A program made the translations under genes and the position numbers. Below, piece after piece: positions 56,555 through 56,656 of a stretch of DNA of 64,000 nt. The notes under the pieces were generated by a model, which was given only the letters and a program-made list of their open reading frames with translations, had not been told where the DNA came from and ran no database searches. This DNA comes from a phage. The DNA lies in assembly GCA_010671865.1 (NCBI GenBank), contig GCA_010671865.1_4083.1. One strand, 5' to 3'. Each line of letters starts with the position of its first letter. Position 1 is the first letter of the stretch.

Positions 56555-56569
56555 GTGTAGTTCTCCTTA

Positions 56570-56612
56570 TATTCCTTCTATAGTACACCAGTACTGAAAG
56601 GATGTCAAGGGT
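56570..56612 (-). promoter_or_regulatory. candidate promoter for the leftward family C array (divergent region)
   Basis: minus strand TTGACA-17 nt-TACTAT then AAGGAG RBS; approximate. Confidence 0.45.
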
Positions 56613-56656
56613 TTTCTTTATGGGGTAAATATGATATAATGAATAAGGAGGGATTT

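Follow-up and report, generated by a model that had tools for sequence, protein, structure and literature searches.

Predicted divergent promoters in a conserved interval between the small-gene and RCC1-like arrays of an Asteriusvirus jumbo phage

The stretch of phage DNA analysed here (contig GCA_010671865.1_4083.1, 64,000 nucleotides; hereafter, the window) shares 95-99% identity with the Asteriusvirus jumbo coliphages SP27 (99%), 121Q, PBECO4, G17 and phAPEC6, and a search of viral contigs for related loci returned 121Q as its sole match. It runs from a unique genome end through a long direct terminal repeat into an array of small genes and an array of RCC1-like genes (Table 1); in G17, which is a linear record, the terminal redundancy of ~20 kb was defined by sequence coverage (PMC6563267). 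The two arrays are separated by a gap of ~100 bp (56555-56656), which lies at the same place in all annotated relatives. For the annotated coding sequences of G17, SP27 and phAPEC6 this gap is, as the initial annotation had claimed, the only strand switch; the claim does not extend to promoters, since plus-strand promoter-like modules with no ORF downstream also occur in the window. The start of the phage A4 record at the gap junction was considered as a possible physical end and rejected: because the coverage-defined ends of G17 map elsewhere, it looks more like an annotation convention.

To the left of the gap, the 75-aa gene that opens the small-gene array belongs to no Pfam or PHROG family, and the other small proteins of that array likewise gave no match to a family of known function in these two collections. 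To the right, Pfam recognizes RCC1 repeats in the genes of the rightward array, and the first of them scores 28.1 bits for the RCC1 repeat (cutoff 21.7) and an E value of 1e-50 for phrog_4219. Its reading frame could be extended to an in-frame ATG at 56639, and all annotated relatives start at the equivalent of 56657; the N-terminus MLPFARMVKYGNI is common to all RCC1-like paralogs. Scans of the whole window for tRNAs and Rfam families gave no matches.

Table 1. Coordinates of the arrays, genes and predicted control elements in the window.
Feature	Position	Strand	Remarks
Unique right genome end	1-31,995		
Terminal repeat, ~20 kb, direct	31,996-51,891		G17 record ends map exactly there
Small-gene "family C" array, ~4.4 kb	52,155-56,554	minus	
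75-aa gene, first of the leftward small-gene array (52155-56554)	56327..56554	minus	annotated in G17, SP27, phAPEC6 (gp548c) and others
Shine-Dalgarno AAGGAG	56563..56568	minus	8 nt before ATG at 56554; annotated RBS in UE-S1
Predicted -10 hexamer TACTAT, sigma-70-type	56580..56585	minus	10/12 in consensus scan
Palindrome CAGTACTG in leftward spacer	56589..56596		6 nt after -35, 3 nt before -10
Predicted -35 hexamer TTGACA	56603..56608	minus	6/6 consensus
A-rich tract AAAGAAAACCC upstream of -35, UP-element-like	56609..56620	minus	on the plus strand, T-tract of RCC1 cassettes
Predicted bipartite late-type promoter TAAATA-tga-TATAAT	56626..56640	plus	predicted start ~56637-56640
TATAAT preceded by TG at 56632-56633	56635-56640	plus	extended -10-like
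Shine-Dalgarno AAGGAGGG	56645..56652	plus	conserved in every cassette
RCC1-like array	from 56,657	plus	
First RCC1-like gene, 392 aa	56657..57835	plus	Pfam RCC1, phrog_4219
Next cassette (hairpin, T-tract, TAAATA-tag-TATAAT, Shine-Dalgarno)	57840..57906	plus	recurs at ~60234, 61444, 62664, 63923

Sequence inspection found all of the motifs that had been named for the gap, each at the position given for it. The leftward TTGACA-17-TACTAT promoter with its AAGGAG ribosome-binding site, which had been assigned to the 75-aa gene, is conserved in 12 genomes. Its -35 hexamer and 17-bp spacer are invariant in 12/12 Asteriusvirus genomes, including the ~80%-identical flanks of JNE01 and Turkey5, as is TTCTCCT at the Shine-Dalgarno site (12/12). 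The -10 hexamer changes only at positions 3 and 4, the two least critical ones, giving TACAAT or TAGAAT in relatives, with T1, A2, A5 and T6 kept in the 12 genomes. The TTTT of the tract upstream of the -35 is conserved in the same alignment, and this tract, homologous to the T-tract of the RCC1 cassettes, resembles a proximal UP element, judging by the published UP consensus. Moreover, the Erwinia phage Hallingskeid, which is distantly related and shares the gene layout, shows TAGACA-17-TATAAT at the corresponding site and carries CAGTACTG at the same position of the spacer, a palindrome that is lost in JNE01 and Turkey5.

A consensus scan of the window for sigma-70 promoters returned 55 sites as against 67 +/- 7.5 in shuffled sequences, that is, no enrichment, and the 97 sites scoring >=10/12 on both strands correspond to a chance of ~0.05-0.08 per strand of meeting one in 102 bp. 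Matches of exactly 10/12 number 65, of which 38 lie inside genes. Since such matches are common, the leftward 10/12 match says little alone, and its support comes from conservation. Perfect 12/12 sites are distributed differently: there are 12 in the window, most of them in the terminal repeat, and because all twelve are intergenic, we conclude that the phage uses this promoter type. Related phages have been reported or inferred to rely on the host RNA polymerase and RpoD-like early promoters (PMC5259590; PMC7318152), and the perfect sites of the terminal repeat fit both the RpoD-like early promoters predicted in CBB (PMC5259590) and the early transcription of the terminal repeat in PA5oct (PMC7318152). 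Two other ways of reading the leftward interval were rejected: a CBB-type "TGAAACG" -35 would have to be TGAAAGG at 56595-56601, which is not conserved and lacks a suitably spaced -10, and a -10 in another register after AGTACTG (TGTACT) would do without the essential A-11.

The phage's own terminal-repeat cassette, AGTACTA-TTGACA-N9-AGTACTG(G)-(T/C)ATAAT-...TACATCAAG, resembles the leftward promoter in its sigma-70 consensus hexamers and in the AGTACT palindrome within the spacer. The leftward promoter differs from it in that AGTACT does not abut the -10 but lies 4 nt from it, beginning 10 nt before the hexamer, whereas in 15/19 cassette sites it begins 7-8 nt before the -10; moreover, the TACATCAA leader and the upstream AGTACT are missing, and the -10 matches at only 4/6 positions. 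The leftward promoter as a copy of this early cassette was rejected on the offset of AGTACT and the different leader.

On the rightward side, a module repeated before most RCC1 paralogs has its first copy at 56609-56656; its order is hairpin (GCCAGTAC-loop-GTACTGGC), T-tract, TAAATA-tag-TATAAT, AAAGGAGG and ATG, and in this first copy the leftward promoter stands in place of the terminator hairpin. The cassette hairpins (dG -10 to -13.3 kcal/mol, z -2.8 to -4.2) are annotated as terminators in G17. Within the gap itself neither an intrinsic terminator nor significant structure was found, the fold of 56575-56625 giving z +1.2 on the plus and +0.07 on the minus strand and the terminator scan no site.

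The rightward cassette had been read as TATAAT plus a Shine-Dalgarno sequence, and both are present; the TATAAT, however, probably does not act as a sigma-70 -10, judging by the pattern of conservation. TAAATAT is invariant in 12/12 genomes and in 27/27 unique motif-carrying cassettes, whereas TATAAT is damaged in 5/27 unique cassettes, four of which read TATAAC, with the -7 T lost, and one, in ph0011, GATGAT. There is no recognizable -35 (3/6 matches), the consensus scan did not call the site, the TG is missing from the internal cassettes, and a sigma-70 start 7 nt past TATAAT would land within the Shine-Dalgarno sequence (AAGGAGG). The element is thus not a classical sigma-70 promoter. Nor is it the T4 late octamer TATAAATA, of which the core GGTAAATA matches 6/8 and the repeats carry TTAAATA; the core also does without the A of the ATAAATA that is commoner in the genus. 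It does conform to the late motif of the Rak2/CBB group, nTAAATA followed by a TATA-like element. Hallingskeid keeps gggTAAATAcgtTATATT at the junction and in its cassettes, with the halves TAAATA and TATATT, and since both halves are kept there, the TATAAT half is not dispensable.

The motif is associated with genes for virion proteins. In phAPEC6, (T)ATAAATA precedes the genes for the major capsid protein, the scaffold, the sheath and other virion proteins, and the bipartite pattern TAAATA-N3-4-TATA(A/T)(A/T/C), searched for in 150 kb of the core genome of this phage, has nine occurrences outside the RCC1 cassettes, all nine sense-oriented and immediately upstream of a gene. Seven of these nine genes (gp179, 192, 205, 231, 244, 274, 280) encode virion proteins verified by mass spectrometry, and before one of them, gp274c, the terminator, T-tract and cTAAATAaagTATAAT are arranged as in the RCC1 cassette. 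Mass spectrometry of phAPEC6 virions also found eight RCC1-like paralogs, among them gp549 at the same junction, in a list that also holds thymidylate synthase and RecA-like proteins, a reminder that virion proteomes can contain contaminants (PMC7247149). The first RCC1-like gene of the window, which is only ~27-30% identical to any paralog so detected, is not a direct ortholog of gp549 (27% identity); the gene at 61509-62657, which has the same cassette, is 92% identical to gp549. By analogy with the paralogs that share its cassette, the product of the first RCC1-like gene may also be a virion protein.

Both elements have counterparts in related phages. The leftward promoter resembles the early class of CBB and GAP32 (RpoD-like plus UP element) in its TTGACA/TAnnnT hexamers and its A-rich upstream tract, and, as in those phages, the genes that follow it are short hypothetical ones adjoining the terminal repeat. 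AGTACT/CAGTACTG, which the early promoters of Asteriusvirus carry, is in contrast essentially absent from the CBB promoter tables. The rightward element resembles the ATAAATA late motif ("promoter 3") of CBB and GAP32, classes that in CBB are predicted rather than mapped: the 14-mer CTAAATATGATATA, listed in the published table of CBB late motifs upstream of a structural gene, is nearly identical to 56625-56638.

T4 late promoters consist of TATAAATA at -10, read by gp55 together with gp33 and the gp45 clamp. The rightward element shares with them an A/T-rich, -10-only layout with TAAATA, without a -35 and ahead of virion-protein genes, and a gp55-like late sigma factor is annotated in Asteriusvirus (in phAPEC6, gp237c bears the annotation of late sigma factor). 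It differs in its core, GGTAAATA (TTAAATA in the repeats), which agrees with 6/8 positions of the octamer, and in the conserved TATAAT 3 nt downstream. Unlike T4, phages of the Rak2 group reportedly have no homologs of gp33 and gp45 (PMC5259590).

Given this, we consider it reasonably probable that the gap holds two divergent promoters, one of sigma-70 type and presumably early, directed to the left, and one of T4-like late type, directed to the right. Early in infection, the unmodified host sigma-70 polymerase would read TTGACA-17-TACTAT with the UP-like tract, start a messenger near 56573 with a ~19-nt leader carrying AAGGAG, and so serve the 75-aa gene and the ~4.4-kb small-gene array toward the terminal repeat. 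On the other strand, the host core polymerase with the phage gp55-like late sigma would presumably read nTAAATA-N3-TATAAT, with no -35, and start the messenger of the first RCC1-like gene at ~56637-56640. Most RCC1 paralogs have this module before them, with an intrinsic terminator ahead of it, and hence each of them may form its own late transcription unit. Since the zone of UP contact in the leftward promoter and the core of the rightward one overlap, the two promoters could probably not be occupied simultaneously. Such an arrangement recalls PRM and PR of lambda, with two outward promoters and overlapping polymerase footprints (the starts predicted here are ~65-75 bp apart), except that switching is proposed to proceed by sigma replacement and not by operator occupancy. 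Searches of the literature found no promoter, start-site or time-course transcript studies of Asteriusvirus.

Three other explanations have to be weighed against these two promoters. In the one that we regard as unlikely but the most serious of the three, both promoters depend on host sigma-70, the rightward one as an extended -10 (TG-a-TATAAT), the arrays are co-expressed early or constitutively and the gap is a mere strand switch. A perfect TGnTATAAT does occupy 56632-56640 and is kept in 9/12 aligned genomes, and the conservation of the second half as TATATT in Hallingskeid could be taken in the same sense. The internal cassettes, however, read TAGTATAAT without the TG, the -7 T that is critical to such a promoter is gone from the TATAAC copies and the whole hexamer is disrupted in ph0011 (GATGAT), and the 3/6 match at -35, the lack of a scan call, the start inside AAGGAGG and the association of the bipartite motif with virion genes all speak against it. 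We give still less weight to the proposal that TAAATA-N3-TATAAT is read as one unit, forming a separate middle or late class, by an RpoD-like sigma factor of the phage rather than by a gp55-like one. The two halves and their spacing are indeed conserved across genera, Sharanji and CBB encode an RpoD-like sigma factor with regions 2-4 (PMC11895373; PMC5259590), and homologs of gp33 and gp45 are missing from CBB (PMC5259590); yet ahead of the major capsid and sheath genes stands the canonical (T)ATAAATA with no clear second half, which fits the gp55 paradigm, and nothing connects the RpoD-like factor to the bipartite element.

That the leftward hexamers are a chance match, with the small-gene array driven from some other place or by a promoter that escaped recognition, seems to us very improbable. 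The frequency of 10/12 matches, 38 of them in coding sequence, and the absence of overall enrichment in the scan would allow it, but all 12 genomes keep the -35 and the spacing unchanged, the pattern is found again in another genus, the element is correctly positioned relative to the Shine-Dalgarno sequence and the ATG, and no upstream gene on the same strand could supply read-through.

If the gap indeed holds an early promoter to the left and a late one to the right, the two arrays would very likely fall into different temporal classes. The suggestion that the strand switch marks a boundary between such classes thus gains indirect support from the sigma-70-type promoter on its left and from the late-type motif and paralogs of virion proteins on its right; the larger organisational boundary, however, lies 4.7 kb to the left of the gap, at the end of the terminal repeat (51,891). 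The gap itself is a conserved divergent control region, an ordinary phage architecture built from promoters of known kinds. It offers two usable promoter models and a rationale of timing for the annotation of Asteriusvirus genomes: the small-gene array would likely serve early host take-over, the RCC1-like array would comprise late, individually transcribed virion genes, and the window can be placed on the physical genome, with a field of predicted early promoters inside the terminal repeat (31,996-51,891). The divergent promoters themselves do not alter the understanding of phage regulation, though the CAGTACTG signal might.

This signal is strongly over-represented. The window has 258 copies of AGTACT where ~22 would be expected (12-fold), and 55 copies of the 8-bp palindrome CAGTACTG, of which AGTACT is the core, where 0.6 would be expected (~86-fold). 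The density of AGTACT peaks at 20-fold in the terminal repeat and reaches 19-fold in Hallingskeid and ~5-fold in the phAPEC6 core; along the window it is highest at 31,996-56,600, and hardly any copies occur at 16-24 kb and 28-32 kb. Inside genes it is found in all three frames, with 173 occurrences as against 56.5 +/- 6.6 after synonymous-codon shuffling (3-fold). Between 32 and 53 kb the palindrome lies in or at the spacer of ~19/23 strong promoters, where it usually abuts the -10 and in many cases is found beside the -35 as well, at a distance of about two helical turns; one early cassette is nearly identical in Hallingskeid, where the palindrome flanks the -35 too. Its halves, moreover, form the stems of the RCC1 terminators. 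No description of an AGTACT/CAGTACTG signal in phages was found in the literature searched. Tentatively, and as a possibility to which we attach limited confidence, CAGTACTG may act as a DNA signal throughout the lineage of Asteriusvirus-like jumbo phages, probably as a site bound by a dimeric protein that the phage encodes, and an operator for a phage-encoded regulator would be the most natural guess. A protein binding to CAGTACTG could then silence (or activate) the early promoters as a group, or serve to label phage DNA.

Several further observations concern the RCC1-like array. Its terminator hairpins (57,840-57,862; 60,234-60,252; 61,444-61,462; 62,664-62,682; 63,923-63,943, with counterparts in G17 and SP27) have loops that are reverse complements of each other between copies (TTGA/TCAA, AGA/TCT, ACT/AGT) and stems that are split palindromes (CAGTAC and GTACTG); the hairpins appear to have been repeatedly inverted. 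The paralogs at 56,657-64,000 have the promoter/leader cassette in common, as well as the first ~13 residues, MLPF(A/G)RM(V/M)(K/N)YGNI; their bodies, which are shuffled from phage to phage, diverge to 27-30% identity, and this pattern suggests a conserved N-terminal module placed on hypervariable virion proteins. A paired change from TATAATGAAT to TATAACAAAT (60,281-60,290; G17, JNE01, Turkey5) recurs in separate cassettes and genomes, and hence suggests gene conversion between cassette variants.

Base composition also varies along the window. At 32 kb both GC content and AGTACT density jump, and near 52 kb the GC skew changes sign. The small-gene array (52,000-56,500) has more C than G on its coding strand, with a plus-strand GC skew of +0.14 to +0.20, which is opposite to that of all other minus-strand genes in the window.

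The boundary of the terminal repeat is straddled by 1.9 kb (50,280-52,150) with no annotated gene, which contains iteron-like repeats (TAGCCGTTTAGCCGTC..., ~51,030-51,100) and several promoter-like sites on both strands; a hairpin, GGCAGACTTCCTCTGCC, lies at 51,871-51,887, just inside the end of the repeat. This gene-free stretch may be linked to replication, packaging or the genome terminus.

The plus-strand promoter-like modules that no ORF follows lie at 46,721, 48,649, 50,559 and ~50,790, in a region whose other features are on the minus strand. Some 25-35 nt beyond each of these strong cassettes comes a conserved element resembling CCCACCGGGTGC (CCCAGGGGGTGC at 50,559), and a terminator-like hairpin stands at 46,8xx, after the cassette at 46,721. 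Possibly, they could give rise to small RNAs or antisense transcripts. A repeated element of ~45 bp, CAAGTACTTTTTA(A/T)(A/C)AATAGTTTTCAGTACT, with two AGTACT sites, is found at 35,620, 38,920, 42,200 and 48,610, where it adjoins repeated terminators of the GCACCCTGTGGGC type.
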